Origin: Dipteris shenzhenensis
Lineage: Eukaryota
Direction: 5' to 3' (one strand)
Assembly: GCA_047967505.1 (NCBI GenBank)
Contig: CM106538.1
Length of the DNA: 64,000 bases
Positions 5,520-60,143 of this stretch are shown here, one piece after another; positions within the stretch are counted from its first letter, which is position 1, and every line of letters begins with the position of its first letter. A program made the translations under genes and the position numbers. A model generated the notes under the pieces. The model was not told the DNA's origin. It saw nothing but the letters and a program-made list of their open reading frames with translations, and did not search any database.

Positions 5520-7387
5520 TGCACTTTACACATCATATATATTTGTGTCCTCCTCCTCCTCCTCATCAACACCAACATCAGGACATCATGGTGGGTGGGG
5601 GCAATGGAGGCATGAAATCGGCAATAGAGTGCTGTAAGCTGCTCACGGGTGTGGCCCTGTGACTTCTTCTGGTCATAGCTCTGCAACTAACAAGGGCAAT
5701 AGTAACCCCTGTTAGCCGGGCTCCGACTCTGAATAGAGAGGGGGTATCCCCAAGGGTAACTGTGGGTCAACCCTACTGTTGAGTCACTGGCTCTGGGTTA
5801 CGATCATGTTGAGGCCTTGTATCGTGGGGGTCCATGTGATGTGGCAGGAAGAACTCCGTGATAGAGCTCTGAGATGGATCTGTCAAGGGAGAAGTCTGCT
5901 CCTATCTTGGTGTTCGAAGTAGCCTCTTGCGGTGCTTGGTTGCCTCATGGATGAAGGCTGCCAAGCATCTTTGGTCTGGATAGGAGAGGAATCTAGACAA
6001 AACCCCAGGCAGTAGAAATGCCCTCGGATCTCGTAGTAAATAGGACACCTGAAGATGAAGTGCTTCTCCATCTCAACCTTTTGTGTGTCACATAATGTGC
6101 ATATGCGCCTCTCCTTGGGTAGGCCCTCTGCTCTCTCGCTCTCGATACGACGTCTATGTGAAGAGACCCGAAACTGCCTAATAGAGATCCTCAATGAGTG
6201 GAGTAAGTGGATCTGTGTGTATCCTGGTGGGTCAATAAAACCCTCCTCCGTGATATGCAAGCAGTGATCTCTGTAGACGCCGAGCTTCATTGGAAGCTCG
6301 CTTGGTCCCAACCAGGTCCGGAATGTGTGTAGTTGTAAAAGATCCTCATGGATTACGTGGTTAACCTCGTGTGACAAGAGGGGAGAAAACAGAGTGTCTA
6401 GACTACACTGGAAGGGAGGGAGTCTATCCATGTGGATCCCTGGTCACTCAAACCATCTCTTTGTGCGTGCATACCAGCATCTTTGGTCACCTCCTGTTGA
6501 GAGTGCCATAGAAGAGGACAATGCTAGCCATGGTAGTCTGTTGCGCAGAGAAGTGTAATCCCCATACTCCCTAACTTGATACAGATACGTGATGACCTGA
6601 AATGCAGCATCTAGCTGTAATGGGGATGACCCAAACTCAGACTGAATGATTTGGTGATGAACGGATGGTTTACCGCGAATCATCCGCAATAGCATGAGAA
6701 CCTGTAGCCGCTCCACATGAGCCCACTCTATATCCGACAAGTCTGGCCCCCAATAAGGGCTGCCATACATCCCTGCTGGGCGGACCAAGGAGTCAAAAAG
6801 CAGCCCCTCGTTCCGTGGATCCTAAAAGTGCGAGCAGAAGCACTGCCTCTCTAGTCTTGCCAATGAAGCGTATCCTCTGTCCAGGATAGCTTGTATCGCG
6901 GTCTCATAGTGAATATGCGTCCAGAAAAGACAACCCCAAGGTACGTGTATGACGAAACTATCTCAACACGTGACCCATCAAACGTGAACTGGTCTTGGTG
7001 CATGGCGGCTCAAGATGTATTGAAGACCATAACCTTGGTTTTACCAAGGTTGACCTTCAAATCATGAGACTCACAGAAAAACTGTAGGGCGTCAAGGTGT
7101 CTCTGGAGCCCCTCTGCTGAGGAAGACAAAAGTGCCACATCATTTGCATATAGCAATATCTGGATCAACGTGCTGGCAAGAGAGCATGCATCCCCCCTTG
7201 GTGTTTGCATCACTGTCTCGAGCTCATCAATGTAGAGGCCAAACAGGGTAGGTGATAAAGGACACCCTTGTTTGACCCCAATAGTGTTAATGATCTCATG
7301 TGTCCACCTAGGCCCTGCATGGACTCTGCCTGAGACTCTCGTATAATGCCATGACAGCCCAAATGATCTCTTGGTCATAACCTAAGA
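5520..7387 (-). mobile_element. RTE-X-like LINE, 5'-truncated, decayed (RT C-half, zinc finger, C-terminal tail)
   Basis: GVKQGCPLSPTLFGLYID, LLYANDV, VNLGKTKVM, ICTLC...HFIFRCPIY; stops and frameshifts. The clade is inferred from motif style. Confidence 0.85.
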
Positions 7388-7388
7388 A

Positions 7389-7676
7389 TTGACTACGGTC
7401 CAAGATACTTGACTCTAGTCAAGTAAGCCTGATTTTGGTCGGAGAGACTTGGTTTGATAACCAAGAGGGTTAATTGCGGTTAACCAGAGAACCATAGAGT
7501 TGACTACGGTCAGAGAGTGTTGACTTCGATCAATGAGACTTGGCATACGCCAAGAGGTTTAACTACGGTTAACCAAGATGTGCCAACTTCGGTTGGAGAG
7601 ACTTGATTATAATTAAGGCGCCTCGGCCCTTGGTCAAATCCCCTTCATCATGATCAAGAGGATTGACCTCGGTCAA
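7389..7676 (+). repeat. Array of about 14 short inverted repeats (hairpins with mostly 4-nt loops)
   Basis: For example cttgac-tcta-gtcaag, cttggtt-tgat-aaccaag, cttggc-atac-gccaag, ttaac-tacg-gttaa, ccaac-ttcg-gttgg, ttgac-ctcg-gtcaa. Confidence 0.9.
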
Positions 7677-8089
7677 CCAGAGAAATGTTTTATGTTGTGC
7701 GCACATGTGTTCAGTGGGGACGCCCACTGTGACTAGGATTAGTCGACAGTTTATTATTTGCATGCAAGCGCTAACAATTAATGGGTGCCACGGTGGTACT
7801 AAGAAGGGTTGATTTCCCAAGCGCTAAGGAGCTTGGCAAGCGACCAGAAGATGTCGTGTGACCAAGGAACATCGAAGACCCTACTACATTTTAGTTAGAT
7901 ATTTTGACACTTGGCATGTTGCCAAAATATTGAGCCATGAGCTCTTTGTAAAAATTGATTCACGTTTTGGATTTTAGAACACAGCTTCCATGCTGAACTA
8001 TTGTACTGAGGTTCCCTCTTCATGAATAAAGCCTTGGGGGGGTCCAGCCCGACGATTGTCCTGGGCCCTAGTGTGTTTGTAAAGAGAGA

Positions 8090-9850
8090 AAGAAAGAAAG
8101 AAATTTTATTAGAGTCTTCGGAAGACCGATGGGTCTATGAGACTGAAAGAAAACCTGATACAAATCACAGTAAGGGTGGAGCTACTAAAACGAGCATCAT
8201 CACCCATGTTGAATCCTAAGTCTGATCATACATAATCAAATACATTTGGATGTAACAATGAAAAGAAAAGGACTGGAGCGGAGCGGAATCCTCCGTATGT
8301 CATGTCGCCCTGGCCAGTGCATAGCCGGTGATGGGATGCTGGCGCCCGTCAAGGGGTGCTATGTGTCTCGGTCTGCTGGACGAGGCTCGACGCAAGACCA
8401 GAGCCACCGTGACTCCCGTGGGACGTATCTTGGGTCTAAACAATGACGGGAGGTCCCCCAGAGTGATCTGTGTGTCCCCTCGATGTCTCGTGTGTCGTGT
8501 TGCGATCGTCGGGTCGGGGTCTCTGTCATGTCTGCAGCTAGAGACTGGACGATCAATGTCACTTGATGGGAAGAACTCTGTGATCCTGCTCCGAGAGGTG
8601 TCTGATGATGTGGCCAAGCCCCGTCGCCTGAGTAAGTGCTCTCTGTGTCGGACCCCCTCGTGAATGAAGGCCGCGAGGCGTCTCTGATGTGGGTAGGCGA
8701 GGAATCTGGAAAGGAGCCCGGAGCTGTCTCTGAAGAGGCAGTGGTAGTGACCGCGGATCTCGTAGTACACTGGGCACCTGAAAATAAAATGCTCCTCCGA
8801 CTCGACCTCCTGACAATCGCACAATATGCATAAGCGATGCTCCCTAGGAATCCCCTTTGCTCTTCCGCTCTCTATGTGGAGACGGTGTGATGATACCGAA
8901 AACTGTCCGATGAAGACCCGTAGTGAGTGAGGCATATGAAGCTCAGTGTACCCTGGTGGTGTGATGAATCCCTTCTCTGAAATACGAAGACAATAATCTC
9001 TGTAGAAACTCAGCTTCACTGGAAGCTCCCTCGGCTCCAACCAGGTCCTAAAGGTGTGTAGCTGCAGGAGATCCTCTCGAATGACCTGGTTGGTGTGTGG
9101 CCCGATCGGATGGTGGATGGGAGAACTGGAGGGGCATCTAAACTGTACTGAAAAGGAGGTATCCTATCGATGTGGAACCCTAGTCTCACAAACCATCTGT
9201 GAGTCCATGCATACCAGCATCGCTCGTCTCCCTCTGCTGCCAACCTCATGGAGGAATCGAGAGCCAACCATGGCAACCTCTGTCTCTCTGATGTGCAGTT
9301 CCCATATGATCTAACCCAGTGTAGATATATAATGGTCTGAAAGGCTGCATCTAGCTTGAGTGGAGAAGTACCAAACTCGGCCTGAATGATGTGATGTGGT
9401 ACAGATGGTTTCCCCCGGATCATTCGTGAGAGCATGAGGATCTGCAGGCGCTCCACCCGTGTCCACTCTATCTCTGACATGTCAGGCCCCCAACAAGGGC
9501 TGCCATACATACCGGCTGGTCAGACCAAGGAGTCGAAGAGAAGAGCCTTGGTCCGAGGGTCCTGGAAGTGGGAGTGGAAGCATTGTCTCTCTAGCCGAGC
9601 CAGTGAGGCGTATCCCCTGCTCAGTCTGGCCTGCATCGCTAGTCTCATCGTGAAGATCGGGTTGGAGAAGATGACCCCCAAGTAAGTGTATGAGGATACA
9701 ACCTCAACTGCTGACCCATCGAAAGTAAAAGTAAACTGCTTCCGTTGCATGCTTGCTCGAGAGGTGTTAAAGATCATGACCTTGGTCTTGCCAAGGTTGA
9801 CCTCCAAGTCACGAAATAGACAAAAAACCTGTAGTGCATCCGGGTGTCGC
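8090..9850 (-). mobile_element. RTE-X-like LINE, 5'-truncated with intact 3' end, nested in the LTR of Gypsy A
   Basis: VNLGKTKVM, YTYLGV, LCILC...HFIFRCPVY; conserved 3'UTR and (TTTC)n tail; degenerate TSD tgtaaag-agaga (8078) / tgcaaaggagaga (9851). Confidence 0.87.
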
Positions 9851-9896
9851 TGCAAAGGAGAGAGTGTTTGCAGTAGTTTTGTCCTGGAGATTGCAT

Positions 9897-9908
9897 TGGT
9901 ATCATAGC
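9897..9908 (+). promoter_or_regulatory. Primer-binding site (tRNA-iMet type) of Gypsy A
   Basis: TGGTATCATAGC, one mismatch to TGGTATCAGAGC, 1 nt after a CA end. Confidence 0.75.
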
Positions 9909-10454
9909 TGAATTTTTTTCATCACTCTTCTTAGAGCGTGACGATCCAAGAGCAGGAGGTTTAGCGATGCCACGTGTAAATAATTCGTGGTAACGTTGAG
10001 ATCCTCACAAGATTTTCTATTGGCGCAGAGTAGCTGTTTATGAACTTGCAAGACAAGCGTTGAGGAGCATTTCCAACGATTTGGTAACCGTGCAAGGCTA
10101 CATAAGCTTGTAGCTGTTGACATTTAGCGGTACATCATTCCAGCATTTGACGGAAGCGTGCATTAGTATAGAGGCTTGGATTGGCAACGCGAAAAGGCAA
10201 CGCAAAGCTAGATTGCTGGTGTAAAGCTTCAAATGGGTCTGAGCGTAGTGCGTGTTCTCGACGCCAGTACTCATAGGCTAAGCAGCCCGCTGAACTGCGT
10301 AAGGCGATGAAGGCAATGTGTGCGGGCCGTGAGCTTCACGTGTGGAGAATTTCTGACGGGATTCGTCACGGTGCTGCAGAAGTGACTAGGCGCACATAGA
10401 AGGTCCCGCGACGCGCGACGCCGACCAAGCCACCCAAGGTCTGAAACCTTAGGC

Positions 10455-10656
10455 TGACGTGGCAGCCAGCATGGTAGCCAAGCTGACGTGGCAGACACTT
10501 GCCAGCTGACGTGGCACTGATGAGGCACACATGTGTGATGGACATGTGGCAGGTGGCATGGCGGCCACACGTGTGAGATGACGTGGCAGATAGGCATGTG
10601 TGTGATGACATGGCATGCTTGCAGAGCTGACGTGGCAGGGTGATTGACACGTGGCA
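10455..10656 (+). repeat. TGACGTGGCA (ABRE/G-box-like) motif array in the Gypsy A leader
   Basis: Five exact TGACGTGGCA (10455, 10484, 10507, 10579, 10628), one GACACGTGGCA (10646) and decayed variants. Confidence 0.88.
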
Positions 10657-11272
10657 GCCAGTTGGCAGACCTGTGGTTAGTGTGACCTTGGTCAAGTTAA
10701 CTGCAGTCAGTTGACCCTGGTTAGAGATCTGGTCAGAGGACAGCCTAACCAGACTGTCTAATTAACTGGACTAGACTGGTCCAGTTAACCAGTTTGGTTT
10801 AGTTAGTGGCCAAGTTACAGACTAACTAGTCTGTCAATCTAACCAGACCCAGGACTAATCTAGTTAGTGTAACCAGCAGTTACTCATCCAGTTACTGTCC
10901 AAAAAAAAAAAGAGTTTTCCTGTCAGTTTTCACCTGTCAAAGGTACACTGTCAGTACTTTATCTGTCAGAAAAGCACAGAAAAAGCAGAAAAATCAGAGA
11001 TTTGCACAAGTATGCCTTTGTGCTCAGAAAAGGGTATCAGATGCATTCTCAGTGTTTTTTTTGCAGTAGCCAGGAAAGGGGCAATACAGTTGTTGATGCT
11101 TTGGCAACCTTGTGGGTTTATGCTTTGAGTTGAAAGCCCATTACTGGTACAAGTTGTGAATGCAATACACCTCTTGCTGAGGTATTTCTTCTGGGAAAGC
11201 AAAGGCTGAGTGCATCAGTTGCTTACATTGTGTGTGTGAGAGAGTTGCAATTCTCAGATTTTGGTTGCAGAA

Positions 11273-11636
11273 ATGGCTTCACAGCAGCATGCCCAATCAT
11301 CCCATGAGGGAATGGGAGAGTCTGACTAGGTACAGCAGGCAGAGGCTATACAGATAAATAAAGAGAATGCCTACAGAGAGTTGATTACGCAGTTGGGAGA
11401 GGCAACAAGCGATGCCTTGTTTCGCAGGATGGTACAACCTCTTTTTGAGGAAAAACCAGAGAAGTGGAGCAGATCAGGAAGAAGTGGTGGGCAAAAAGAG
11501 GAAAAGAGCAGGTCCTCTTCCCAAGAAGAAAAAGGCGAACCATCATCACAGTTCATCCAGTTCGTTTTCTTCTTCTAGCTCTACCTCTTCATCCTCAACA
11601 TCACCTCCTTCTTCTAGATCTTCAAAGCCAAAGAAG

Positions 11637-11667
<31 letters not shown>

Positions 11668-13223
11668 CTAGCAGGAAGGCAGAGACTAAAGAATTCAAGG
11701 ACGGTGGGAAGTCAGTACGATTTGCCACTTACAATAGCCAGTGTGGCCAAGCTGAAAAGACAATGCAGTTCATAAGGCAGTTTGATGCTGCCTTCAGCTT
11801 GGAAAATTTCAGTGAGTCCTCAAAGCTTCGTATGGTTGGTTTACACTTGACTGGTATAGCCAGTGCATGGTGGATAGCTAAAACAGCCAACTATGTAGCC
11901 CCCAGGAAATGGAAGGACTTCAAGAAAGCTTTCTATAAGCAGTTTATTCCCAAACATTTTCCGGATCATGTCCTTATTGGTTGGGAGAGCATTCATATGG
12001 AAGCACAAGATATAGTTGAGTCTTACAAACAGAAATTTTGGGACGCATACTTGCAGGTTTCGCCTTTCAAGAAAATTTCTGACAAGACTCAACTTAGGAA
12101 GTACCGGGCTGGACTCACTCCAAAGATACAGGCCCGAGTGAACACTAAAGATACTAAAGAAATATCAGATCTTATGCATTCAGCCAATGTGGCTAGTCTC
12201 GTGTACACGCAGGATCCTTCTAGTATGCCTTCTCTACAGGTAGGGATACCGGGGGATAAAAAGCCAACGACCCTCAAGTTTGAAACAAGAGAGTTTCCCA
12301 AGGCTCAGAAGAGGGGATTTCAGCCTCGGAAGCCGAGGGGAAACTAGGTACAAAAGAAAAGAGGGTAAATGCTTCAGCTGCGGCAAAGAGGGGCATGTGG
12401 CTGCCCAGTGTCCAGAATAGCCTTCAACTCCGAAGGGGAAAGAGACAGAGAAGCCACGGGGACCGCATAAGCCAATGACAAGAGGAATTCGTGACATACT
12501 GGGTTATGTTTCAAACCCAAAGGAACGAGAATTGCTGCTATCATGGGGCAAAGTCAGAGACCAGCAAGTGCTGATTTTATTTGATCCAGAGGCTACTGAT
12601 AACTTTATATTAGAGGATCTAGCCCTGAGGCTGGGAACAAAGACGGAGGAGTTGGGCAGGGCTCTGGATGCTGACTAGATGTTCTGTGGGACCTGTGCCA
12701 GTCACTCCCTTGATAGGGAAGCTCTGTCTTCATGTACATAGTTATGTGGATCGGGAAGACTTTTTCATTTCTCCACTGAAGCATCATGATGTAGTCTTGG
12801 GTATGCCTTGGTTCCATCACAAGGCAGTAAAGTTGACTCTTCATGAAAGAGTGCTGGAGTTTGTACATAGGGGCAAAGTACATCGTGTGGCTGCTAGGAA
12901 TAGAGGGGAAACTATTCCCATTGTATCAAATAGTTCTGTTGGAAAAGAAATAAAGTCTGTAGTTTCAGCTTACATGGTTTTTGTAAAAGAGAGATATATG
13001 GAAATGCATGCTGAAATAAGTGAGGCAGATTATAATAAATTTCAGTTTCTTGAAAATTTTAAAGATTGTTTCTCTGACGCTTTACCAGGGGAGCTACCCC
13101 TTGAGAGACTTGAGGATCATGGCATATAACTCATTCCTGGCAGTGAGCCACCCAATAGACCCCCATACAGAGTAAGTGTAACTCAGCGAGAGGAGATTAT
13201 GACTCAGGTGCAGGACTTGTTGT
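11273..13223 (+). pseudogene. Gypsy A gag-protease, disrupted
   Basis: Retrotransposon gag-like core (ASAWW...WKDFKKAFYKQF), CCHC knuckle and aspartic protease spread over several frames with stops; (AAG)n encodes poly-K. Confidence 0.85.
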
Positions 13224-30959: not shown

Positions 30960-33690
30960 GTGGACTGAGGAGTCAGCTCGAGAATTTCGTGTCTCTGCGG
31001 TTCTGGGCCATGTTCTCTATGCTCTTGATATGAGCTTGGCTCAAAAGGCAGTAGTTTTGTTTTTCCCTGCATGGTTGAAGTATCTCTTGAAAGGATGTTA
31101 TGTTGCGGGCTGCTATAAGACTCTAGAGGATTTTATGAGGTTATTTTTATAGATGCTCAGTACAAGCAAGAACTATTGGAAAAATCCCCTTTGTTTTTTG
31201 GGAACCAGCTACTGCACATGTATCCATGGATGCCCACACAGGATTACCAGAGTCTTATTCGTCATAAATGCCCCGTGTGGGTGGAGCTTGTAGATGTGCC
31301 TTTATACTACAGCCCATCAGTCTTGCCTTATGTAGCTGAAGCATTAGGGAAAGTTGTATGTCCTCTTCACTCTCTAGGAAATGCCAATGGATTATGTGTT
31401 CTTTGGGTTACTGACAGACCCACTCCACGTCATGTTGCTTTACAGGTGGAGATGTAGGGTATATCTTCTCAGCAAGTATTTTTTAAGTTGAAATGAGGTA
31501 ACTTTGCTAGTGCTTATTTTGAATGTAGCAAGTTTGGCCATATGCAATCTGAGTGCCCTCAATTATTATTGAAGCCTCCCCCTGCAACTGCAGCCCCTGA
31601 TGAATCCTCCTTGCCCAGGCCAATTGTCATGCAATGAACTTGTAGTTCAGGTGCCGTTACCCCACCTAATATCAATGATAAGGGTAAAGCTAAAATTGCT
31701 TTTGTTCCTTCTAAATCATTGGATCAAAAAGTTGTGGGAGAGAAAGATGCCTCTTCTAAGTGGCGACAGCCCAAGAAGACATTTAAGCCAAGACCCATGG
31801 CTAGTAAAAGTTGGACAGAGACAGCTTTTGCATCTAAGGATGTTCCTTTGCCTAATGGTTTTGGGGTTGGCAGCCTTTGGTCTACAATTGTTTGTTTTGA
31901 TCCTTTGTTTTGATCTCATATGGTTGTTTCTTCGCTAGATAATCCGGTTTCTCCTTCACTTGGTTCGAATGAAGAGCAGGGAAATGTTTACGAGGGCTGA
32001 GAAATGGAGAGGGTTCCAGGCCAGTCTAGCTGGAAGGAGAATGGTTCTCACCACTGCACATACCCAATTGTCATTTTCTACCTCACTTCATGGTCCCCTT
32101 CTAGAACTGGAATCATTAGAATTTGCAGATCCTTTCTTTGGGGGGGCAAGATGGCCAAGGTGAGGTGGGAGTTTTGTATCAAACCCAAGCAGGAAGGAGG
32201 CTTAGGTGTGATAGATATAGAGCAGGCCTCTCTGAAACTATCCTCAACTTAGATAATTAAAGCAATCCTCCATCCTCTTGAGGATTGGGCCCAAATCCTT
32301 CTAAGGAATGTCAACTCCCTAAGACCTCTGAGAGCTCCCAAGTGGAAAAAGTATCCTATGCTATCAGCTATTTGTAACCTTGAACCCTACAAAGCTAAAG
32401 GCAGTCAATTTTGTCTCTCACTATGGACATCCTTTGAAGGAATTAAAAGCCAAATTGTCTTCTCTGACAAAGGAGCTTTTATGACATTAGATTCAATCTG
32501 GGTCTCTGTTATCTTCAAGGAGGCTGTTCTCTCTGATCAAGACTTTGATAAGGCTATTGTACTCTTCAAAAAGGGACTGCAATGCTGGGGTCAGCTTTGG
32601 AACAGAGCCGAATGGAACAGAGCCGAGCTAAGATGGAAAACCTGGATTGAGATTAGGAGAGAGTTCAGTTTAAACAACCAAAGCTAGCCACTAGTGTTGA
32701 ACAGAATTTACCTCTGGCAGGGCAATCAGTAATGGAAAGGTGGATCATTCTTGGTTTACAGCAAAGAGTTCAGCTGGGTTAGAGTACTTCTTTCTTCCCT
32801 ATCCCCACTCCAACTAGGGACATAGGTGATCTCTTCATTATCCTTAATACTAGGTGGAAACTGCAGGACTCTAGGGACAAATGGAAATTCAGATTCTGCT
32901 TCATTTGGTTAAGCTCAATCTCTGATAAATTGTCTGCCTTGCTTTGGCTAATAATGCATAAAGCTGTGTGGACTAATATTAGAGGACCGAGAATTGGAAA
33001 GGGAAATGGCAAATGCATGAGGTGCCCCTCTATAAATGAAGATATTTTCCACCTCTTTGTTGCCTGTCCTGTTGCTAGAAAGGTGTGAAAATAGTACAAT
33101 TGGAAACAGGGGAGCCAATAAATTGGAAGGCCATACTACTAGGAGACTCTTCAAGGACAAAACATGAGATATGGACACCGATCAGAGCACATGCACTGTG
33201 GTTTATTTGGATAACCAGAAACAACTTTCAGTTTAATCAAATTGAGTTGCATGCTGACTTACTTATTCTCAATTGGTTGCACAGGACCAAAGGAAAATTA
33301 CAGAAATGATAAACTAGTTCAGAGTTGATGCTGTCCTCTTTAATGCTGACCTGCAAGACCATGTTCAAAGCTGCTTTGGGATGGACAGCACTACTCCTTT
33401 TGAAATCCCCCCTAAGTTTACTGGTTTTCTTAAACAGGTCCCTCCTCCAATTGTAAAGACGAAACCAGTGTCACCTAGTGAAGCCTAGACTGCTGCCATA
33501 GATGACTCTGACAATTCTGGTGATTCAGAGGACTTCAACTACTCTGACTACTTTAATGATGATGGCACAGATGATATAGATGATTCATATGTACCTCTCT
33601 TCTAATTCTGCTGCTATGACAAACTCAAAAGCCCTCAAGCTCATGAGTGTCTGTTAGAAATGCTTTGTTAAAGAGACTTCTCCCCATAGG
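30960..33690 (+). mobile_element. L1-like LINE, decayed and internally deleted (ORF1 joined to the ORF2 C-terminal part)
   Basis: DYQSLIRHKCPVWVE is homologous to ORF1 at 1020-2231; then LEKWRG..SLAGR, KQEGGLGV, KCMRC...HLFVACP, LWFIWITRN. EN and RT core are absent. Confidence 0.85.
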
Positions 33691-33693
33691 GAC

Positions 33694-34123
33694 TGTCACG
33701 ATCTGTGACGTATTCCTTTCTCTTTCTAGACTTATGGATGGTTTAATGAATGGACACTTGTGGAAGGGTATGACCTTTCGACGGGACACTTGCCCTTTCG
33801 ACGGGACACTTCTTAATGAGGCACAACCTTTCACAAGAGACATTCTAATGAAGAGACATTCCTATTGTAATGTACCCTCTCATCAAGGGTCACACCCTTC
33901 ACAAGGGGTACACACCTCTTCATGCACATACCCTTTGGAGTTCACACCTTTTCATGTGTGACTCTTCACTCTCTATATAAGAGAGGCCAAATTGTATGGA
34001 TGACAATCACATCCACCCTACAGACATTCAAGCAATATCATTATTCCTTTGCTCTCTGCTATCTCAGTCTCTTTTCTGTTCCTTAGCACAGTTCTAAATA
34101 TAGTAAATCTAGGATTTCTTACA
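33694..34123 (+). repeat. 5' LTR of Gypsy B (430 bp)
   Basis: TGTCACG...CTTACA; TATA box CTATATAAG at about 33973. Confidence 0.95.
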
Positions 34124-34728
34124 GTGGTATCAGAGCAAAATTCGCTCCTGCCTGTAGGAAATGCCCCCCACCTTCTAGCACTGATCTGATACATTTTTGC
34201 CGCTAGAAGAACATCCGTGCACTTAGTGCATGGAAGAGATGGAGAGGATGAGCATAAAATTTTTAAACGCCTAAAGTCATCCTGGCCTCTCCATCTCCCT
34301 CACATCACAAGTTGATGTGAATGGACACGACCAAAATCGTGTCCTTTAAGGTGCTTGGGTTGTCCCAAAACCAAGGGACGCGCCTTTTCCACCATGGGAC
34401 ACACCTTTTGGTGACGAGTCTCGACTTCTCACTCATGGGACATACCCCATCGTGGGCAAAGGGACATACCTATTCATGCAGGGTCGCATCCCTTTTAACA
34501 ATAGGGACATATCCCCTCATGAACAGGTGCACCTATTCCAAGGGTCACACCCCTTCGAATAGGCACACCTCCTAGGCCCAAGTACCTACAAAAGGGAACC
34601 TAGAGGGGTAAAAAGGGACAAAAATTAAACCCATCCCCTAACCCTAGGTTTACCCTAACTACCCTAGGGTTAACTTAACCCCCAACTTAATATTGGGGCA
34701 AATAACCCTTAGGCAGCCCAACGAATCG

Positions 34729-34975
34729 TCGTACCTTCCAGCCAATACAAAGAACAAAAAACGGCCGTACGGATTTCCCGCAGCCTGCGCCAGCCATCGC
34801 AACCTTCCGTACCAGCCCTGCGCAGCAATCCGTACAAACCTGCGCCATCCGTACCAGCCCTGCACAACAGTCCGTACACGCCTGCGCCATCCGTACAGCC
34901 CTGCGCAGAAGTTCGTACAGACTGCGCCATCCGTACAGCCCTGCGCTGGTACAGTCCTGCGCTGTCCGTACAGCC
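34729..34975 (+). repeat. CCGTAC-containing minisatellite in the Gypsy B leader
   Basis: About 11 GTAC cores, about 8 of them as CCGTAC, in units like ccctgcgc-cat-ccgtacag. Confidence 0.9.
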
Positions 34976-35423
34976 CCTGCATGCGCAGCATCACGCCGCC
35001 GGTTTTCTGCCTTTTTCCGCTGCCAGCCCTTGGCCTCTGTCGCTGCCAGGTTCTGCCCCTTTATAGCCCTGTTGGTGTTGCCTCGCCTGCTCCTTTCCAG
35101 CCTGCAACGGGAGCACAGCTTCAGCCAGCCTTTCGGTCGACAAACAAGGGAACTGCAACAGTTTTCGCCATTATTTTCCTGCTAAATCAGCAACACTTGC
35201 AGCCTCCTCTCGCAATGAAGACAGCCCGTTGACAGCCCGGACCAGACCAGCCTCGAGCACTCCTCGCAAAACACTGCAACATGGACCTCCGGACAACGAT
35301 TTGCAGCCTTCTTCTACGCAATCATTTGGCAGATTAAAGAATTGCCAGGTGGAGTCTTTCCAATCTGCTTTTTCAGGATTCTTTTTAACAAATTACAGCA
35401 AATGAAAGAATCCACATTAAAGC

Positions 35424-36068
35424 ATGGAAACCCCTGGTAATTCACCCGGCCATTCAAGGACACCTCAGGCACCTGCTACTACACAATATCGTGTTCAAAT
35501 TGCACAGCCAGCCCATTTTGGAGCCTTTGCATCTTGGGTCTTCTGTGTCACGTGCCCTCCGAGTGACTTGGATCACATCCTCTACCTTCTGCGTGAGGCA
35601 CCTCAATTACATTTTTTCCTCAGCACAGTACAGGTTGTGTTCCACGAGACACGAAGATATCCGGAACACGATATTCCTCAGGAGTTTGCTGTTCATTTTT
35701 GGAGAGAGTTCTACCCTTCACCTTCGGCATCCCTAGGGTACTCTCCACCTCCTTCAGCTCCCCGATATCCTCCTCTACAGGGTGTACCTTCTCCAAGTCA
35801 GTATTTACATCCTGAAGGCACTCCCTCCCCTGGATATCCTCCTCTTCCGACAGCAGCTCCTTATCCTTTTTCAGATCCGTGGACTCTGCTACCTACCCCT
35901 GTCTTATCACGAGCAGTAACACCTTTTTCAGAATCTCCAGTGTTACCTCCGACAGGACCTCCCTTACCAGATTTCCACGGGTGGTTCCATCCTGCCTCGC
36001 CTACCCCCTCCAATATGAGCAACCTCAGGGAGCAGCCCGAATCCTCTTTCAGGGATGGTACAAACTAG
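35424..36068 (+). CDS. Extra ORF upstream of gag in Gypsy B (214 aa, Pro-rich C-terminal half)
   Basis: ATG-initiated uninterrupted ORF whose end overlaps the gag start by 14 nt; no family recognised. Confidence 0.55.
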   Translation: METPGNSPGHSRTPQAPATTQYRVQIAQPAHFGAFASWVFCVTCPPSDLDHILYLLREAPQLHFFLSTVQVVFHETRRYPEHDIPQEFAVHFWREFYPSPSASLGYSPPPSAPRYPPLQGVPSPSQYLHPEGTPSPGYPPLPTAAPYPFSDPWTLLPTPVLSRAVTPFSESPVLPPTGPPLPDFHGWFHPASPTPSNMSNLREQPESSFRDGTN

Positions 36069-39000
36069 AGCGCAAGTTCGCGCCTCTCTCACAGGGATTT
36101 CCGACATGTCGCACCGCTCGCGTGAAGCCTCTCCCGAGATTAAAGAATCAAGTCCCAAAAAGACCCCTGAAGGCAACACCCAAAGTGAATCTCTATTGCA
36201 ACTTCAAATATCTCAGCTTCAGGACAGCATCTCCGCCGACCTGGTTCAAAAAGTTCAACAACTCCAAGATTCTCGAAGTCCAGCACATACAGAGGACGAC
36301 GTGACGCAACCCGACGACGATGCGGACTCTTTCCCCCCCGAGGTAGAAAATACTGAACTGCGTACTCTCTACCGATTACTTCAAGCTTCCAAAACAAAAC
36401 GACTTGACGTCAAACTTTCGGAAGCCTACACTGGTCAACGTAATCGCCGAACTGTTGACCAATGGCTCGCTAAAATGCGCATGTATTTTGACACTGTTGA
36501 CCTCACGGAAGGGAAAAAGATCGCCTTGGCAGCCTCCCTCCTGAAGGATACAGCATTTCTATGGTGGCAAAGACGCTTAAAGGACGGAAAAAGTGTGTTA
36601 ACTTGGGAACGTTTTGAACACGTGCTCCGTAAGCAGTTTGTACCTGCCAATGCGGACTTCCAAGCACGATCAAAACTTCGACAATTGGAGCAAACGGGTT
36701 CCCTGTCTTCTTATATCTCTCAGTTCACCACATTGGTGCTAGAGATTGATGGTTTAACTGAGGATGATCGCCTTCATGCTTTCATCTCAGGCCTACAATC
36801 CTCGTTACGCATTGATGTTCTTAAAGCCAATATCACCACCACAGATGGCGCTATTGCTTACGCAGAGCGCATTACAGATTTCCTCAACACAGGGAAGCAG
36901 AGTGCTACTCGCACACAGAACTCTCCTATGGCCAAAGGTGCTCGCCCTCAAGAAAACACCAGGTTTCGCAAAAACTTCGGTAATCAAGGTCAGCGACAGT
37001 CTCAAGATCCCCAGAAGCCTCAGAAATCATTTGCTGGATTCCAACAGAAGCACTCCCCCAAGGATCGTGTTTCTTCTTCTTCACAAAGTCATTACCGACA
37101 GCCCCAACATAAAGGTGCGGCCACTGACAAGAAGAACAACTCCAGCTCAAAAGGACTTTGTACCATCTGTACAGGCGACCATAGATGGTTCGATTGTCCC
37201 AAGCGACCAAAGCAAAATTCTAATATGGAACCTAGCACTTCCCCAAAAGAAGATGCTACCTCAGCACAAGACAAGAAAGGCAAAGCTGTTCGAATGGCGA
37301 ATACCATCCACCTGAGCCTTGCCAGCAACCCCGAACCTTCCCTGGCTACTCAAGTACTTTGTGTTCAAGGATCGATTCGTGGAACAACGGTCACCATTCT
37401 CATCGACAGTGGCTGTTCTCATAATTTCCTAGCCAGTTCTGTGGTCGATAAACTTCGGTTGACCACCAGTCCTAGCCTCATGGACTATCAGATTGAACTC
37501 GCAAATGGAACAACTTTCTTGTGCAACACCAGGATCAAAAACTTGTCTTTTCGCATCCAACATTATACGGACAAGTTGAACTTCGACATTATGCCCCTCT
37601 TTCTCGGTACGATGTCATACTCGGACAACAATGGCTCTACGACTATGATCCATCAATCAGTTTTCGCAGCCATACTATCCAGTTTGTCCACCAGGGAAAA
37701 CTTATTGAGCTTTGACAGCCATAAACATTATGATATCCAAACCCGATATCCGGTCTATGATAAGGAGTTTCTTGCTGTTGTACATGCTTATCGCTCTTGG
37801 AAACATTATCTCATGGGTGCCGACTCTGTGGTCAAGACAGACCATCACTCTCTCAAGTACATCTTTACTCAGCCAGTCATGAACGCTCGACAAGCACGCT
37901 GGGTTGAGTTTCTGGCCAACTTTCACATGACCATTGAGTACATACCAGGACTACGCAATGTAGTTGCAGATGCTCTCAGCAAGTTACCTCTAGCATCAGC
38001 CATGGTAATCTCTACATTATCTGTGGATGTTCCGAATTCATTCAAAGGAAAGTATTTCAATGATAAAGACTTCGGCACCGCAGTACAGGTTCTTTCCAAA
38101 GATCAACCTTCGACTTCCGAACAAAAGATTTTCTCATCCTATTCTTATACGGACGACCTTCTGTATTATCAAGATCGCGTCTGTGTACCACATGACAAGG
38201 ATGTTCGACGTCTTTTGTTAAAAGAGCATCATGTAGTTCCTTATGCTGCCCATCCAGGCATCAATAAGACTTATCGGTTACTCAGTGCCACATACTACTG
38301 GCCTCAGATGAAAAGAGATGTCATCAACATGGTTACATCTTGCTTATCATGTCAACAAATGAAAGCAAGTCGACGACTTCCTACAGGACTTCTTCAACCT
38401 CTTCCAGTTCCAACTGAAAGGTGGGAAAGTATTTCCATGGATTTCATTACAACACTACCACGATCCTCCAGAGGTAATACTCAGATTATGGTAATTGTTG
38501 ATCGCTTGTCCAAATTGGCACACTTTGTTGCTTGCAAAAGCAGTGCACAGGCCCCGGACATAGCCAAACTCTTTATACAACACATCTTCCGACACCATGG
38601 ATTACCCAAGAATATCATATCCGACAGAGATCCTAAGTTTAGCAGTCACTTTTGGATTTCACTGTTCGAATCTTTGGGTACTACTCTCTGTTCAGTTCAG
38701 CTTACCACCGAGAATTAGATGGACAGACTGAAAGAGTCAACCAAGTTCTTGAAGAAATGCTTCGAAATTATGTTCAGTCACGCCTCGCAGCCTGGGAAGA
38801 GTATCTACCACTCCTCGAGTTTGCTTATAATAACTCTTTCCATAGTGCCATCAGCATGACTCCATTCCAAGCAGCTTATGGACACACTCCGATTGTACCA
38901 ACAAATTTTGTACTTCAACATCGAGTGGCCCTAGCTGATCAACTGGTTCAAGAAATGCAAGACATTTTACTGCAAGTCAGGGATCATATGCGAAAAGCGC

Positions 39001-39490
39001 AAGAGCGGTATCAACGGTCTGCCAACAAACATAGACGTCACCTGGAATTTAACACTGGTGACATGGTGCTATTATTTGTAGCCCCACATCGCTATAAGAC
39101 GGTTAAGTCTGTGTTTCCTAAGTTGCGACCCAGATACTATGGACCTTTCCGGATCGTCAAGAAAAATTCACCTTTAAGTTATAAATTGGAATTACCACCA
39201 TCATGGGGTAAAATCCATCCAACATTTCATATTTCTTGGCTAAAGACGTACATTCTAGGCGATGAAGTAGTTCCTCCTGTAGGTGATTATGTCCCAGAAA
39301 TCGAAGACGATTATGTTCTCCTTATTCCTGAGCGTATTCTGGACCATCGATAGCGAGAGACTCGACATCGACTTATCACGGAATTCCTTGTTCTTTGGCG
39401 AGATCTGGACGACTCCGACGCTACTTGGCAGTCCGATGAAGACTTACAGCAGTACCCTGATCTTTTACAGCAGTATTTTCAGAATCTACC
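36055..39490 (+). pseudogene. Gypsy B gag-pol: gag, zinc knuckle, protease, [RT deleted], RNase H C-half, integrase, chromodomain
   Basis: AFLWW..WERF gag; CTICTGDHRWFDC; LIDSGCSHNF; YDKEFLAV..WKHYL; HPG..CLSCQ, SMDFI, IISDRD, DGQTERVNQ, YYGPF; PERILDHR*...FLVLW...ATW. Confidence 0.93.
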
Positions 39491-39550
39491 ATGATATTTT
39501 CTACATCGGTTCATTATCTCCACCAGGGTCTTCTTTTGAGTGGGAGGGGA

Positions 39551-39855
39551 TGTCACGATCTGTGACGTATTCCTTTCTCTTTCTAGACTTATGGATGGTT
39601 TAATGAATGGACACTTGTGGAAGGGTATGACCTTTCGACGGGACGCTTGCCCTTTCGACGGGACACTCCTTAATGAGGCACAACCCTTCACAAGAGACAT
39701 TCTAATGAAGAGACATTCCTATTGTAATGTACCCTCTCATCAAGGGTCACACCCTTCACAAGGGGTACACACCTTTTCATGCACATACCCTTTGGAGTTC
39801 ACACCTTTTCATGTGTGACTCTTCACTCTCTATATAAGAGAGGCCAAATTGTATG
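39551..39855 (+). repeat. 3' LTR of Gypsy B, last 125 bp missing
   Basis: Matches 33694-33998, then switches abruptly to L1 sequence. Confidence 0.93.
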
Positions 39856-41927: not shown

Positions 41928-41985
41928 CTACGGCATCAACCTTTCTGTTGTTTTCTTAATTTATGGGGATTGTTCTTGTATGCAG

Positions 41986-44900
41986 TGTCTTGCTCTCCAT
42001 TATGGCTCCACATCTACCTCTTCCTCTTGGCATCGATCTTCGTAGAGGTGTGGCAGAAAAAGCTATTGAAAATGTATCTATGGCAGATAAACAGGGAGCA
42101 GTAGATAACTGTATTCCAAAGGTAAATCACAACATGTCAAAAAATACGGAGGAAGAAGCAGCGATGAGGACTGATGCCCAGCCTTGTTGTGATGCCCTTG
42201 AAGATCCAATTCCTTTCCTTCCTACAGAGCTGAAAGTAATAAAATGGCAGAGTTTTGCAAATCCTCCTTCAAATAGTCAAGGCTTTGGCCAGTTTGGTTT
42301 GAAAGGGGAGTCAAAGACTGAAGGGGAAATAAAGGACAGTCTGGCAGTTGGAACCTTGCTACTGGATACTGGTAATTCAAATCTGTTTTTCAATCTTCAA
42401 GCAGAGTACCTGCAACTTGTCAACTACCAGGATCGGGAACTTAGAGCCTCTGAATTCATCCAGTTTGCAATGGATTTACACTCTCAAGAGGATATCAATG
42501 TGGAAGGTCACCATGCTGCGATTGATGCTCTGCTGCTAGCAGCTGAATGCCATTTGAATCCCTTTTTTATGCTTCATCCAACCGACTATCAACAACTGTT
42601 TGATAGGGTTCAAATTGCCAAGAAAAATGCTTGTACACTTGAAGCTAGTAACCGGTCTAGGAGAGTTGATAGGAGGGTAACTGGGATGGACTTAATTGCC
42701 GCCCTTGAAGAAGAAAGAGATAAGGCCGTTCTTGAAATTCTTTTGAAGGCTGCAGAATGGGAGAGTCAAGTGATAGGAAAGGCTTATGGGCATAGCCTTA
42801 TTTCTGAGCAGTCACTATCAAGGGAAGACAATGATAGATTTGGAGGAAATTTAGATTTTGGTGAAGGTCCCACACCAGAAGATGCAACCACTATTGTACG
42901 AAAAAATCAGAAACTTCTGTCCAAATTTTTGGTCATCCAGATACAGAAAGAACGAAATAACATGTATGAGGTTCTTTTGCAGGGGCTTCTTTTCTTGCTA
43001 TACTCTGCCACACAGTTGTCTTGCCCTCCAGAGTTGATTGTGGATATCATTTTAAAAAGTGCAGAGCGGCTTAATGTCTCTCTTATTTCTAACCATAAGC
43101 GACTTAAAGAAGGGCATGCTGATTTAGCATCAGCTGCAGTTCATCGCATACGTAGGCAATGGGCATTGTTGGAAAGATTGGTGATTGCTGCAAGTGGCGG
43201 TGGGTCACAGGAGGATGAGGAAGAGATTGCCTTTTCCAGATTAGTACACTACAAGGATTTGGTGCCAGCTTCTGCTTGGATGGCTAGAATAGCAGAGTTT
43301 TCATCATCATCATTTCCTTTTGTTCGATATGTAGGATGGAAAGGGTTAGCTCGCTTTGCCAAATGTCAACGGCAAACTGGTCTCCTTCTTGCCTCTGATA
43401 TGCTACAATTGTCCTCCTTGTTGTCAATTTTTGCAGATGAGCTGACCTCCTCAACCATTTTAACAGCAGAGAAAACTTGTGAATCATTGCACTTGCAAGC
43501 AGGATTGAGACCTTCTGAAAGTAGCCAAGGAATGTTAAAGCAATCAGGCTCTGATCAGAGTAACCAATGTGATCCTGGAGATGTTTCTACTGTTCTCTAT
43601 CCAGAGCTGGATCTCGTTTCTCCCAGCTTGAGAAAACAGTTTACTCTTTTTGCACAGGCCATGCTCGAGACAGTGTGCTTGCAGCTAAGAGGCATCCCCG
43701 CTTCTTCTGTTCCTGATATCTTGAGCTGGTTTTCAGAGCTCTGCTGCTGTCCATTCTCCAAGCTTGGTTTGGAAAGAATCCCCAGCACACCAGGAGAGTG
43801 TTCAGAGGTCAAGGGATATGCTGCAGCAAATGTCAAGTTTGTTATACTTAATCTATTGGAGGTTATAGTGGGAGAGCATATGGAATCTCTTGTACCAGAG
43901 CTTCCAAGGGTTCTTGGTGTGATTTTATCATTATGCCAGAGCTGTTATTGTGATGTTACTCTACTCGATTGTGTGCTTACGGCTCTCAAGCCAATCATAT
44001 CTTGTGCAGTAGCTTCTGCAGCTGCCTCTGAATTTGAAGTAGACGATAACCCTACTGCCATGACTTTTGAGTCATTGTGCTTTGATTCACTGATGGAACA
44101 ACTTAGGAACGGTCCAGATACAAAGAATGAAGTTAAAGGGCAAGGATCACAGGGAGCATTACTGCTCTTTCTTTCTGGTTCTGTTCTGTCTGATCTTTCT
44201 TCTGCAAGGAGAAATGAGCTCATGCATTTGCTTATGCGGTGGGTGGAATTTACGAGGTACAGCCCTACCACCTCGTATCACAACTATCTGTGTGCATTTC
44301 AAAAGATTCTTGAAGCATGTGAATCACTCGTCCAAAAGGCCTTGGATGAGAGAGGAATTTTTTTCGAGAAAGAAGAAGCATCAAAGCACCATCCTGAGAA
44401 GGAATTAAAAGAGCCTGCAGAAACCTCATATTTTCCCCATTCAAACAGTGATACAAGAACAACCTTATGTTCACAAACAGTTGACAAGATGCAATATGAA
44501 GAGAACGCTCTAGAAAGTATTCAGCATGGTTTTACTGAGGCAAAGACTGTAATGATGCCTATGAATGAAGCTATCTTAAGTGCTGAAGGCCGTGGTATAT
44601 TACCCAAGGGGGATAATCTACTCTTGTTCTCAAGCATTTCTGAACTAGAGGACTTTGAAAAGTGCTTGCAGGCTTTGGTATTTGCGCTTGGAACTCACCT
44701 TGAAACTGTATGGAAACTGCATTCTCATCTGGCAAAGAAACTCACAATCATGGCAGCTGGGTGTTTAATGAGTACCAGTCTCCTGTCGAAGACATATGCT
44801 GGAAATTTTGTTTCTATGCAAAAAAATGTGGGCATGGTTGAGATGAACTCATCTGCAGCTAAGGCAAGGCAGCAGGTCCCTGTTTTCCATGAATCTGTCC

Positions 44901-45686
44901 TCGAAACTGTTGCACAGGCTGTGATGACGTTCCAACATTCTGATTGTTGGCAAGTTGGAGCTTGTACAATGGAGTTTGTTCTGTCCCTTCCAACATCTAT
45001 AAAGTTCTCAGAAATTCTTCTTTCACTGTTTCAAGCTTTGCAGTTTCAGTGCACCCATGCACCAAGGGTTTCCTGGAGACAGTCGGCAATGAAATGGCTG
45101 TCAAGAATACTTACCCGAATAGTCCCTGATAAGCCAAACTTTTTATCTGCTCCCTTGACAGACCTTTTAGGGATTCTCTTGGACCACCCAGAACCAGAAC
45201 AAAGAGCTGGGGCACTTGAACAGCTAGAAAAGATGGTAGAGCCTGAACACCAAGAGAGCGGTCCCAAAGACCGAGAGAGTGGCATGACAGCAGGTATCTC
45301 ACCAACTGAACATAATAACTGGCTACATTGTAGAGAAAAGAGGACCAGCATTGAATTCATTTCAAGCATAGTGGCTGCAACATGGGACAAGGTGACTTCA
45401 CTCGCAGCCTGTGATCCGTCCTTGCGACTCAGAAGGAAAGCTATGGATATACTGCTAAGTTTCATACCCTTAGCACAACCACAACATTTGCACAAGTTTC
45501 TAAGCTCAGTTGATGCCATTCTCCCAGGTTTAGCCAAGTCTTCCTACACCATGAGTGATGCTCCTGTTACCAGGCTGTCACTGGCACTACTTTCTCGTGC
45601 TTGCCTTTATTCTTCAACAGCTGATATTAGCACAATTCCTTCGTGTGTTTGGAGCAGCTTAGAAATTTTATCAAGAACTAAACCCG
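41986..45686 (+). CDS. Host gene exon h (3701 nt; (S)VLLSIMAPHLPLP...LSRTKP)
   Basis: tgcag|T GTC completes the AG|T Ser codon from exon g across a 23,556 bp intron; CCCG|gtatgc donor; lies within the 1252 aa ORF. Confidence 0.95.
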
Positions 45687-45926
45687 GTATGCTCTACCTT
45701 TTGCTGTGGAATCGGTATTAAAATCCCCCACCTTCCCCCCACCCCCTAGAAAAACAAAAGTGGCTTTTTTCCTTGTCTATCCTTTTTCTTACACACTAGC
45801 CATTCTGTTATGCTTTGTGCTCATGTGTGCCAGCACATGGTCATGAAACTACTTGTTTCATTTTTTCAGTTTTTGGTTTCAAAGTGTTACACAATTTTAG
45901 ACATCATTAAGTAATGAAAGTTGCAG

Positions 45927-50749: not shown

Positions 50750-50767
<18 letters not shown>

Positions 50768-50794
<27 letters not shown>

Positions 50795-56620: not shown

Positions 56621-57350
56621 AAGAGAGAGAGAGAGAGATTATTTAAGCCTTCGGAAGACCAAAGGGTCTATGAGACTAAAGAAACCGGATACAATGAGCT
56701 AAGGGGTGGAGCCACTAAGTAGGCATCAGCACCCATGATGACTACAAAAAGTCAGAAACCATAAACATGATCATAACGGCATCAATACAAAGGGATGAAA
56801 CTCTCTGGTCTCAGAAGATGGGAGCTGGCGAGTTGTCAACCTTGAGAAGTGGGCATCCTAGTATGAGGTTGGTGTGGTGGCCTCAAACCTTTGATGGAAT
56901 GATGGTGGCTATCAAAATGTGTGGCCTGCTGTGGTCCTGTGGCTATGGCCTTGCGACGAACGAGCGCTATTGTTACTCATGTGGGTTGTGTCTTCGGTTT
57001 GGGGAGCATGGAGGGAAGGTCCCTAATATGATATGCGCCTCGGTCTGCTCGCAAGCCTGTCGGACCTCTAGCTCGGGTCCTTGTGTTTGCCATCTCCATG
57101 AATCCTACTGGTTGGTGCTGCTTGGTTGGAAGAACTCCGTGATCATGCTCTAGGAGGGTCTAGATGTATACCTTGATCTCTCCTACGTGTCCTAAGCAAC
57201 TTCTCCCTATGTCAAGACACCCTCGTCGATTAAAGCTGCCCAAGCAACTTTGATCTAGGAGGATAGGAGAATGGATAGGGGCCTAAAAACATCCTTCAAG
57301 AGGCAATGATAGGCGACCCTTGATCTCGTAGTACATGGGGCATCTGAAAG
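56621..57350 (-). mobile_element. RTE-X-like LINE short 3' fragment with conserved 3'UTR and (TC)n tail
   Basis: FRCPMYYEI, SMITEFF, VTIALVRR; 3'UTR matches 8103-8220 and 50806-50900. Confidence 0.85.
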
Positions 57351-59765: not shown

Positions 59766-60143
59766 TTTTTTTTTTTTTTTTTGGCCCCCCGCTTGCAGCT
59801 CCGACCTCCTGCAATCTCTTCTTTTCCCGCTGCTGCCTCCCCCATAATGAAGGGAACAGGGGGATGAGGACAAGAGACTAGGTGGGAGACCCTTCGGTCC
59901 AAATTTACATACGCGTGGAGATGGGGAAGCGGAACGGTGACAAGGGGAAAACACAAAAGCAACTTAGTCTGGAGGACTTCAACAAACGCAGCAACCGGAG
60001 TGGTTTGATAGTGGACAGCACCACGGCCCAGAAGAAAGGGGCCCACCCAAAGCCCATGCCGCTCACCACATCCTCGACCTCTATGGTTACCCCCACTATT
60101 TCACCACCATCATCTGCCTCATCATCTACGCCACCTCTCTCCT

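Follow-up and report, generated by a model that had tools for sequence, protein, structure and literature searches.

Fourteen short inverted repeats with matched arms form a fossil tandem array in the 5′ LTR of a degenerate Ty3/gypsy-type element

Introduction

Tandem repeats in the long terminal repeats (LTRs) of retroelements are usually read as enhancers, and enhancer repeats of LTRs classically lie upstream of the poly(A) signal. Tandem-repeat arrays of this kind are known from the U3 region of LTR retrotransposons and retroviruses, examples being the BII boxes of tobacco Tnt1 and the 13-bp repeats of Tto1. Clusters of W-boxes (TTGACY), inverted pairs included, occur in plant stress-responsive promoters. 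At the level of RNA, HTLV RxRE and HERV-K RcRE are structured response elements that are located in the 3′ LTR of complex retroviruses.

Here we describe an array of short inverted repeats in an LTR that is contained in a 64-kb window (the whole stretch of DNA that was analysed, 64,000 nucleotides, numbered from its first letter). The array conserves self-complementarity instead of a motif, which is the signature usually accepted as proof of a functional RNA stem.

Results

LTR setting and host element

The element that hosts the array is of Ty3/gypsy type, lies on the plus strand, and is degenerate and truncated; the array sits in the upstream portion of its 5′ LTR, on the U3 side. The features of this element and of the two LINE copies associated with it are as follows.

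5554–7382, minus strand: LINE A, a 5′-truncated non-LTR element that adjoins the array and hides the 5′ part of the LTR
7389–7676, plus strand: the whole array, 14 short inverted repeats at intervals of about 20 bp, with purine-rich linkers between them
7677–8081, plus strand: remainder of the LTR up to the insertion point of LINE B
8082–9863, minus strand: LINE B, a 5′-truncated non-LTR element inserted in the LTR, with a microsatellite-like tail at 8082–8103; its homology to a reference LINE copy ends at 9852
9864–9895, plus strand: right copy of the target duplication (9864–9872) and the last 23 nt of the LTR, with the CA end at 9894–9895
9897–9908, plus strand: primer-binding-site-like 12-mer with one mismatch, following the CA and a T
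9909–11263, plus strand: long leader with two further palindrome-rich zones (10431–10660 and 10661–10900)
11385–12347, plus strand: open frame of a Ty3/gypsy-type gag (Retrotrans_gag and Ty3_capsid, both E 1.3e-9)

The first-pass annotation of this DNA had merely asserted a Gypsy LTR and a U3 context for the array. Both now have a footing in (i) the CA end, (ii) the primer-binding site with its single mismatch, and (iii) the Ty3-type gag on the same strand, and these three features allow the segments 7383–8081 and 9873–9895 to be identified as at least the last 722 bp of the 5′ LTR. The 12-mer at 9897–9908 was compared with the primer-binding-site motif for initiator tRNA-Met. The only other matches to this motif with at most one mismatch in the window are two exact ones, at 34125 and 62452 (minus strand), and by our own arithmetic about 0.3 chance matches are expected in the window. 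The interruption of the LTR by LINE B is flanked by a 9-bp target duplication (8073–8081 and 9864–9872), the two copies of which are identical at 8 of 9 bases. An AATAAA hexamer at 8025–8030, 349 nt downstream of the array, puts the array on the U3 side, the assignment to U3 being a putative one derived from position. Further downstream, more LINE pieces cut the element off behind a protease-like frame.

LINE A carries a reverse transcriptase frame (7010–7381) and is homologous to another LINE copy over 5554–7382. As this homology stops at 7382, the array was rejected as a part of LINE A. It was also rejected as coding sequence: the LINE frame that ends at 7381 aside, no open frame of at least 100 amino acids runs across it. 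A search for a second copy of 7383–8082 within the window returned LINE-related matches only, and thus no second LTR. Neither a target duplication nor a 3′ end was found for LINE A, which covers the LTR's own 5′ end. Further gypsy pol pieces on the plus strand were sought by tblastn with the pol of the other gypsy element of the window, which matched only itself. Ten open frames between 15 and 33 kb gave no Pfam match. The window may be of plant type, for which there are two leads: a weak match to DUF4283, below the Pfam cut-off, in the first frame of a LINE, and Atlas neighbours that mostly belong to Streptophyta.

Geometry and composition of the array

The array is a fossil one that spans positions 7389–7676 of the plus strand, where 14 short inverted repeats follow one another in tandem about every 20 bp. 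Tabulated from the sequence, the 14 dyads each have a 4-nt centre, and the centres follow one another at distances of 20, 20, 21, 20, 30, 20, 20, 19, 24, 20, 14, 27 and 19 bp, that is, mostly at 19–21 bp. The individual units, all on the plus strand, are given below under the names U1 to U14 (unit U3 is not to be confused with the U3 region of the LTR).

U1, 7389–7402, plus strand: loop TACG from 7394; three Watson–Crick pairs, then a mismatch, then one Watson–Crick pair
U2, 7406–7425, plus strand: loop TCTA from 7414; eight Watson–Crick pairs
U3, 7429–7442, plus strand: loop TTTG from 7434; reaches five pairs only with two G·U on the plus strand
U4, 7448–7465, plus strand: loop TGAT from 7455; seven Watson–Crick pairs
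U5, 7468–7485, plus strand: loop TGCG from 7475; seven pairs, the closing pair being U·G
U6, 7500–7513, plus strand: loop TACG from 7505 with a C-G closing pair; four Watson–Crick pairs and one G·U
U7, 7520–7533, plus strand: loop TTCG from 7525; C·A mismatch at the closing pair, then four Watson–Crick pairs
U8, 7539–7554, plus strand: loop ATAC from 7545; six Watson–Crick pairs
U9, 7559–7572, plus strand: loop TACG from 7564 with a C-G closing pair; five Watson–Crick pairs
U10, 7583–7596, plus strand: loop TTCG from 7588 with a C-G closing pair; five Watson–Crick pairs
U11, 7602–7617, plus strand: loop TATA from 7608; six pairs, one of them G·U
U12, 7616–7631, plus strand: loop CTCG from 7622; G+C-rich and degenerate, 4 of 6 Watson–Crick
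U13, 7637–7664, plus strand: loop CATG from 7649; dyad of 12 positions with two mismatches
U14, 7663–7676, plus strand: loop CTCG from 7668; five Watson–Crick pairs

Units U1, U7, U12 and U13 are degenerate. We placed the centres by eye and where pairing was best, a procedure that somewhat inflates the pairing; those of U3, U12 and U13 in particular were picked for best pairing.

The first-pass annotation had reported about 14 short inverted repeats at a period of about 20 nt, which is confirmed together with every coordinate and every arm and loop string that it listed. Its title, in which these hairpins bear UNCG-type tetraloops, describes 6 of the 14 loops (TACG three times, TTCG twice and TGCG once) and overstates the case for the other eight, two of which are CTCG and six unrelated. 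The UNCG loops are closed by a C-G pair in four of the six cases (U1, U6, U9 and U10, with only three contiguous pairs in U1), and by a U·G pair in U5 and a C·A mismatch in U7 in the remaining two. All UNCG loops of the array can descend from one duplicated unit. The proposal of two interleaved classes, A and B, captures a partial alternation: the order along the array is A B A B A A A B A A B A B A, and U2 fits both classes.

The spacers had also been described as purine-rich, and purines do occupy 71 of the 102 linker positions (70%) on the plus strand. The observed-to-expected ratio of CpG is 0.76 in the array versus 0.45 in the 64-kb window, and the loop CpG is intact in all eight class A units listed (U1, U5, U6, U7, U9, U10, U12 and U14), old as the copy is. 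A repeat finder gives 75% likeness for the neighbouring units U6 and U7, while the array as such is not called by Tandem Repeats Finder.

Density of hairpins

Hairpins with a 4-nt loop and at least five Watson–Crick pairs number six in the array, compared to a mean of 0.27 and a maximum of three in 1000 dinucleotide shuffles, none of which reached six. Once G·U is allowed on the plus strand, at least five pairs are present in ten distinct units. In a scan of the 64 kb, the best four segments of 288 nt all overlap the array, which is thus the densest region of the window.

Arm covariation and neutral models

Over the first five stem positions of the 14 units, 60 of 70 cells are Watson–Crick, six are G·T, one is A·C and three are other mismatches. 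Permutation of the right arms among units leaves 40.1 ± 3.4 Watson–Crick cells, and 60 was reached in 0 of 20,000 permutations. The result is the same when only ten units are used, one per distinct left arm (42 of 50 cells versus 24.2 ± 3.5 permuted, 0 of 20,000). The arms of each unit pair with each other and not with the arms of other units. Pair counting on the ungapped 14-unit alignment yields 94.3% standard pairs versus 74.1 ± 2.8 in shuffled alignments (0 of 500), and 15 cells that are changed on both sides versus 3.7 ± 1.5 (0 of 500). All five stem pairs show at least one such two-sided change, slid controls have at most 52.9% standard pairs, and RNAalifold, unguided, predicts the same 5-pair hairpin.

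These data bear on the possibility that short palindromes clustered here by chance, or that the array is an artefact of unit picking. The selection of the centres of U3, U12 and U13 for best pairing speaks for it. However, no shuffle out of 1000 attained the observed number of hairpins, the region is the maximum of the window, the helix emerged from RNAalifold without guidance, and the slid controls collapse. We therefore rejected this explanation, which we regard as extremely improbable.

Among the 14 units there are 13 distinct arm pairs, and the differences between arms are nearly all transitions. Compared to the commonest arms, those of U10 have both sides changed at three positions, and the difference between U4 and U8 includes a mirrored length change. 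The differences within the recent paralogue pairs U5/U9 and U6/U7 are unmirrored. Our hand estimate is about six mirrored events versus about ten single ones.

Since the units are paralogues, cell counts and shuffles overstate the number of independent events, and neutral histories were therefore simulated. In the first simulation, units arose by tandem duplication on a coalescent or a star tree with 90% transitions, and runs were accepted only at the observed arm diversity. It gave 30.4 ± 8.3 (coalescent) and 39.5 ± 4.3 (star) paired cells, and 60 was reached in 0 of 3000 runs with either tree; without the outlier U12, the fraction of runs reaching 57 of 65 cells was 0.0003 (coalescent) and 0 (star). 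In the second simulation, a G+C-rich palindrome decayed irreversibly, at rates that were specific to each position, mirrored, and matched to the derived frequencies seen in the array, which resulted in 40.1 ± 4.4 paired cells, with a fraction of 0.0007 of 1500 runs reaching 57. In the unit set of both simulations, U4 was anchored from outside.

These simulations model the explanation in which one palindrome was duplicated in tandem and its copies then underwent independent neutral C-to-T and G-to-A decay, the symmetry stemming from a shared context of mirrored sites. Several observations agree with it: the arm differences are nearly all transitions, the window is depleted in CpG (observed/expected 0.45), and in a comparator LTR, as we read its arms, the differences occur at positions of CpG type (CCGAG versus CCAAG). 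Nevertheless, the simulated histories yield 30–40 concordant cells versus the 57–60 observed and attain the observed level in at most 0.0007 of runs, permutation gives a mean of only 40.1 of 70, and the loop CpG is kept in 8 of 8 class A units in an array with a CpG ratio of 0.76. We consider this explanation very unlikely. The first-pass annotation had claimed that the stems differ among units and yet remain paired, and had named C-to-T decay of one ancestral palindrome as the history that would undo its reading. The claim holds beyond both the permutation and the simulation nulls (60 of 70 cells versus 40.1 ± 3.4; at most 0.07% of runs), so that decay of one palindrome does not fit.

The comparator is an unrelated plant LTR present on three contigs of one metagenome (L003 5361–5803, L016 5058–5622 and L022 3639–4058), which carry plant DNA, with a wall-associated-kinase-like frame in L003. 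This LTR has a tandem array of a 37-bp unit that contains a quasi-palindrome; the array starts about 65 bp inside the element, and a TATA-like box follows it. Here the arms have not stayed paired. Watson–Crick cells number 70 of 98, with 12 G·T and 10 A·C, in 14 rows of which one is mis-anchored and which come from loci ascertained with our own search pattern.

There is strong reason to conclude that the pairing in the array was actively preserved or regenerated. The single changes are as expected if an array that was once near-perfect decayed neutrally, the copy being old enough for two LINEs to have inserted in it.

Strand preference and the reading as RNA hairpins

The fraction of standard pairs is 94.3% on the plus strand and 87.1% on the minus strand, and G·U exceeds A·C by 6 to 1 (p about 0.06, one-sided). 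When the hairpins are folded singly as 20-mers, the summed energies are −74.5 kcal/mol for the plus strand and −56.8 kcal/mol for the minus strand, the plus strand being better in 12 units, tied in one and worse in one. With the special-tetraloop bonus and dangling ends turned off, the sums are −42.7 versus −42.5 kcal/mol for 7-nt arms and −25.3 versus −22.8 kcal/mol for 5-nt arms. As the advantage vanishes under these settings, the plus-strand preference is attributable to the UNCG loops, the purine linkers and a few G·U pairs. Furthermore, the UNCG loops and the purine linkers were inherited by the tandem copies, so the 12 units that favour the plus strand are not independent observations.

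The strand preference that the first-pass annotation had attached to the UNCG hairpins is therefore present in the single-hairpin sum, where it is weak and mostly due to the UNCG loops. The folding of both strands, which the annotation had put forward as a check, produced no plus-strand preference over the whole array (−91.2 kcal/mol, z −3.21, for the plus strand versus −93.2 kcal/mol, z −4.39, for the minus strand). In the whole-array context, the pairing probability exceeds 0.6 in only 8 of 14 units, stems of 5–7 bp being marginal. A scan of 7000–11500 with Rfam 15 at E values up to 1 found no match in the array and one chance-level match at 10656–10751. Overall, the sense strand is mildly favoured, which falls short of a demonstration.

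That the array worked as sense-strand RNA hairpins is the best single reading of these data, which we adopt tentatively and at somewhat below an even chance. In addition to the hairpin density, the matched arms, the failure of the neutral models, the LTR context and the unpaired arms of the comparator, it is favoured by (i) six G·U versus one A·C, (ii) the higher share of standard pairs on the plus strand, (iii) the lower summed energy of the plus-strand hairpins, and (iv) the 70% purine content of the linkers. It is weakened by the equal folding of the whole array on the two strands, by the restriction of UNCG to 6 of 14 loops, by the origin of the plus-strand advantage in the UNCG bonus and dangling ends, and by the borderline p value of the G·U excess, as well as by the lack of an Rfam match, by class B loops that match no known stable tetraloop, and by the reliance on a single copy.

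Readings at the DNA level

One alternative is an enhancer array in the DNA of the LTR promoter, with palindromic sites for dimeric or paired transcription factors set two helical turns apart. We rate it as unlikely, if a serious contender. The commonest arms form inverted W-box-like TTGACY pairs, and the 288-bp array contains 8 of the 68 TTGACY sites of the 64-kb window, the other 63.7 kb containing 60. The location upstream of the LTR poly(A) signal is the classic place of enhancer repeats, the 20-bp period fits, the near-equal pairing on either strand is what double-stranded sites predict, and there is a second array, made of an ACGT-core word, in the leader of the same element. A factor, however, needs a fixed word, and the 14 units display 13 distinct arm pairs. 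The TTGACY sites of the array occupy 5 of 14 units and one linker, the other nine units having TTAAC, CCAAC, TTGGC and other arms. Mirrored substitutions at all five positions are, in addition, unexpected for decaying or drifting sites, and the array of the comparator LTR decays unmirrored. Short plant motifs also match often by chance, and TTGACY is not enriched over the whole window (68 versus 88 ± 9 expected).

A second alternative is a mutational by-product, in which one palindromic unit was amplified and template switching on the nascent or the complementary strand, by a DNA polymerase or by the reverse transcriptase of the element, then copied arm onto arm repeatedly. As one arm is copied onto the other, units would diversify and stay self-complementary without selection. 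Template switching is described as capable of both creating perfect stems and fixing existing ones in one event (PMC8794818). Mirrored changes of this origin are alike on both strands, so that no strand preference is predicted, which fits the weak one seen; the other non-coding parts of the same element are rich in short palindromes of varied loop sizes, and the difference between U4 and U8 involves a mirrored change of length. On the other hand, template switching would have had to act very frequently to leave 14 near-perfect stems of 5–7 bp within 288 bp. It predicts no excess of G·U over A·C, which stands at 6 to 1, it leaves the purine linkers unexplained, and no event has been reconstructed from the single copy. 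Such an origin appears to us not probable, though far from negligible.

Further palindromic zones and other elements of the window

Short palindromes are enriched in three other zones of the element: 7677–8080 (7 versus 2.9 ± 1.7 in shuffles, 7 of 300), 10431–10660 (10 versus 3.4 ± 1.8, 2 of 300) and 10661–10900 (10 versus 2.8 ± 1.6, 0 of 300). The leader zone 10431–10660, which Tandem Repeats Finder does not call, is a loose array of an 11-nt ACGT-core word (CTGACGTGGCA and variants) that resembles plant ABRE or G-box sites. The words of the zone 10661–10900 are similar to the array arms. This zone forms one large compound fold-back on either strand (−90.9 kcal/mol, z −5.0, on the plus strand and −87.3 kcal/mol, z −4.1, on the minus strand) with perfect stems of 10 and 8 bp, and it may be a leader RNA structure or a product of the same palindrome-making process.

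Elsewhere in the window, a gypsy element at 33688–39855 has 311-bp terminal repeats that are 98% identical and a gag-protease-RNaseH-integrase frame for which no RVT_1 match was reported; its exact primer-binding-site word at 34125 lies 127 nt past the end of the repeat that BLAST delimits. A copia-type element on the minus strand (60141–62718) has a gag frame at 61297–62424, repeats at 60141–60397 and 62461–62718 that are 95% identical, and an exact primer-binding-site word at 62452–62463 (minus strand), just upstream of the gag frame. An open frame of 1253 amino acids, measured from stop to stop, extends over 41960–45721 on the plus strand and has no Pfam match at E 0.001. Read on their own strand, the LINEs of the family present in the window terminate in a pyrimidine microsatellite, (TC)n or (CTTT)n in type, and not in poly(A), as seen at 8082–8103, 50760–50805 and 56625–56640.

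Searches for relatives and precedent

A covariance model of the 14 units retrieved only its training units from the window, the best match outside the array scoring 13.7 bits (E 1.3). A scan of metagenomes with a 17-base gapped word derived from U4 and U8 returned at least 120 stretches. We attribute these to chance, as the best match in a BLAST comparison of 7000–11500 with 128 loci had an E value of 0.23. A scan of viral contigs gave eight matches, which are likewise chance. Two loci that had looked dense in hairpins, L034 and L040, were rejected because their density is that of a simple ATGC repeat. No relatives of the gag were found in the protein collection, which was searched with the whole protein at near lengths and with residues 115–320 at longer lengths, or in the viral contigs.

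The literature was searched at the level of titles and the beginnings of abstracts for UNCG loops together with retrotransposons, and nothing relevant was among the matches listed. The matches listed for palindromic tandem repeats in plant LTRs included no such array, those for LTR RNA stem-loops with covariation included none on LTR elements, and those for W-boxes together with LTRs described no such array.

Discussion

If the array worked as RNA, the following mechanism can be envisaged. In the active period of the family, what was kept would have been the capacity for stem-loops, and not one fixed DNA word, most likely in the sense strand of the element RNA. The transcript would have carried small hairpins in a row, with unpaired purine linkers between them, and this row would have been near the RNA end, since the 3′ end of the genomic transcript is where U3 lies. 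There, it could putatively have served as a repeated docking or stabilising module for a protein. After insertion, the copy would have undergone neutral decay, and 10 of 70 stem cells are now broken, six of these being G·U.

In its widest form this proposal describes a streptophyte LTR family whose U3 held at least 14 mini-hairpins in a multivalent row, each covarying independently, some of them capped by cUNCGg and all of them set among purine linkers. This would amount to a type of cis-acting RNA module that is undescribed for retroelements, and it might offer docking sites to Gag or to a host protein in control of export, stability or packaging. We put this forward as a doubtful but possible extension of the hairpin reading.

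The evidence base is one old, broken copy of an LTR family, and the present value of the array is accordingly that of a lead. If other copies of the family confirm it, the array may prove to be a structured RNA element of plant retrotransposon transcripts that has gone unrecognised or, alternatively, provide a clear natural case of copying, for example by template switching, that mimics compensatory evolution. The latter outcome would bear directly on the use of covariation as evidence for RNA structure.

Comparison with known systems

An RNA-level parallel in an LTR is offered by RxRE and RcRE, multi-stem RNA elements that lie in U3/R at the 3′ end of genomic RNA and bind several protein copies, a feature of theirs that is putative here. 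Those elements are single large domains served by an element-encoded adaptor, whereas the present array consists of many tiny independent hairpins, and no adaptor gene was seen in the surviving gag-protease remnant. At the level of the single hairpin, U1, U6, U9 and U10 share with c(UNCG)g RNA tetraloops a UACG or UUCG loop that is closed by C-G on the sense strand. The array differs from a series of such tetraloops in that only 6 of 14 loops are of this type, U5 and U7 lack the C-G closure, and the class B loops are unrelated.

Hairpins produced and maintained by template switching resemble the array in their multi-base mirrored changes and perfect short stems (PMC8794818). The work on them concerns RNA genes compared across species, in contrast to the 14 neighbouring stems of 5–7 bp found here.

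With W-box clusters the array has in common its eight TTGACY sites in 288 bp, several of which form inverted pairs. It departs from them in that 9 of 14 units carry other arms, and it is the symmetry that is conserved and not the word. Finally, the array is similar to the U3 tandem-repeat arrays of LTR retrotransposons and retroviruses in its short direct repeats, in the head-to-tail arrangement of its units, and in its position in the upstream part of the LTR, before the poly(A) signal. Unlike those arrays, it is built of units that are themselves inverted repeats, that hold to no fixed word, and whose two arms have changed in mirror image of each other.
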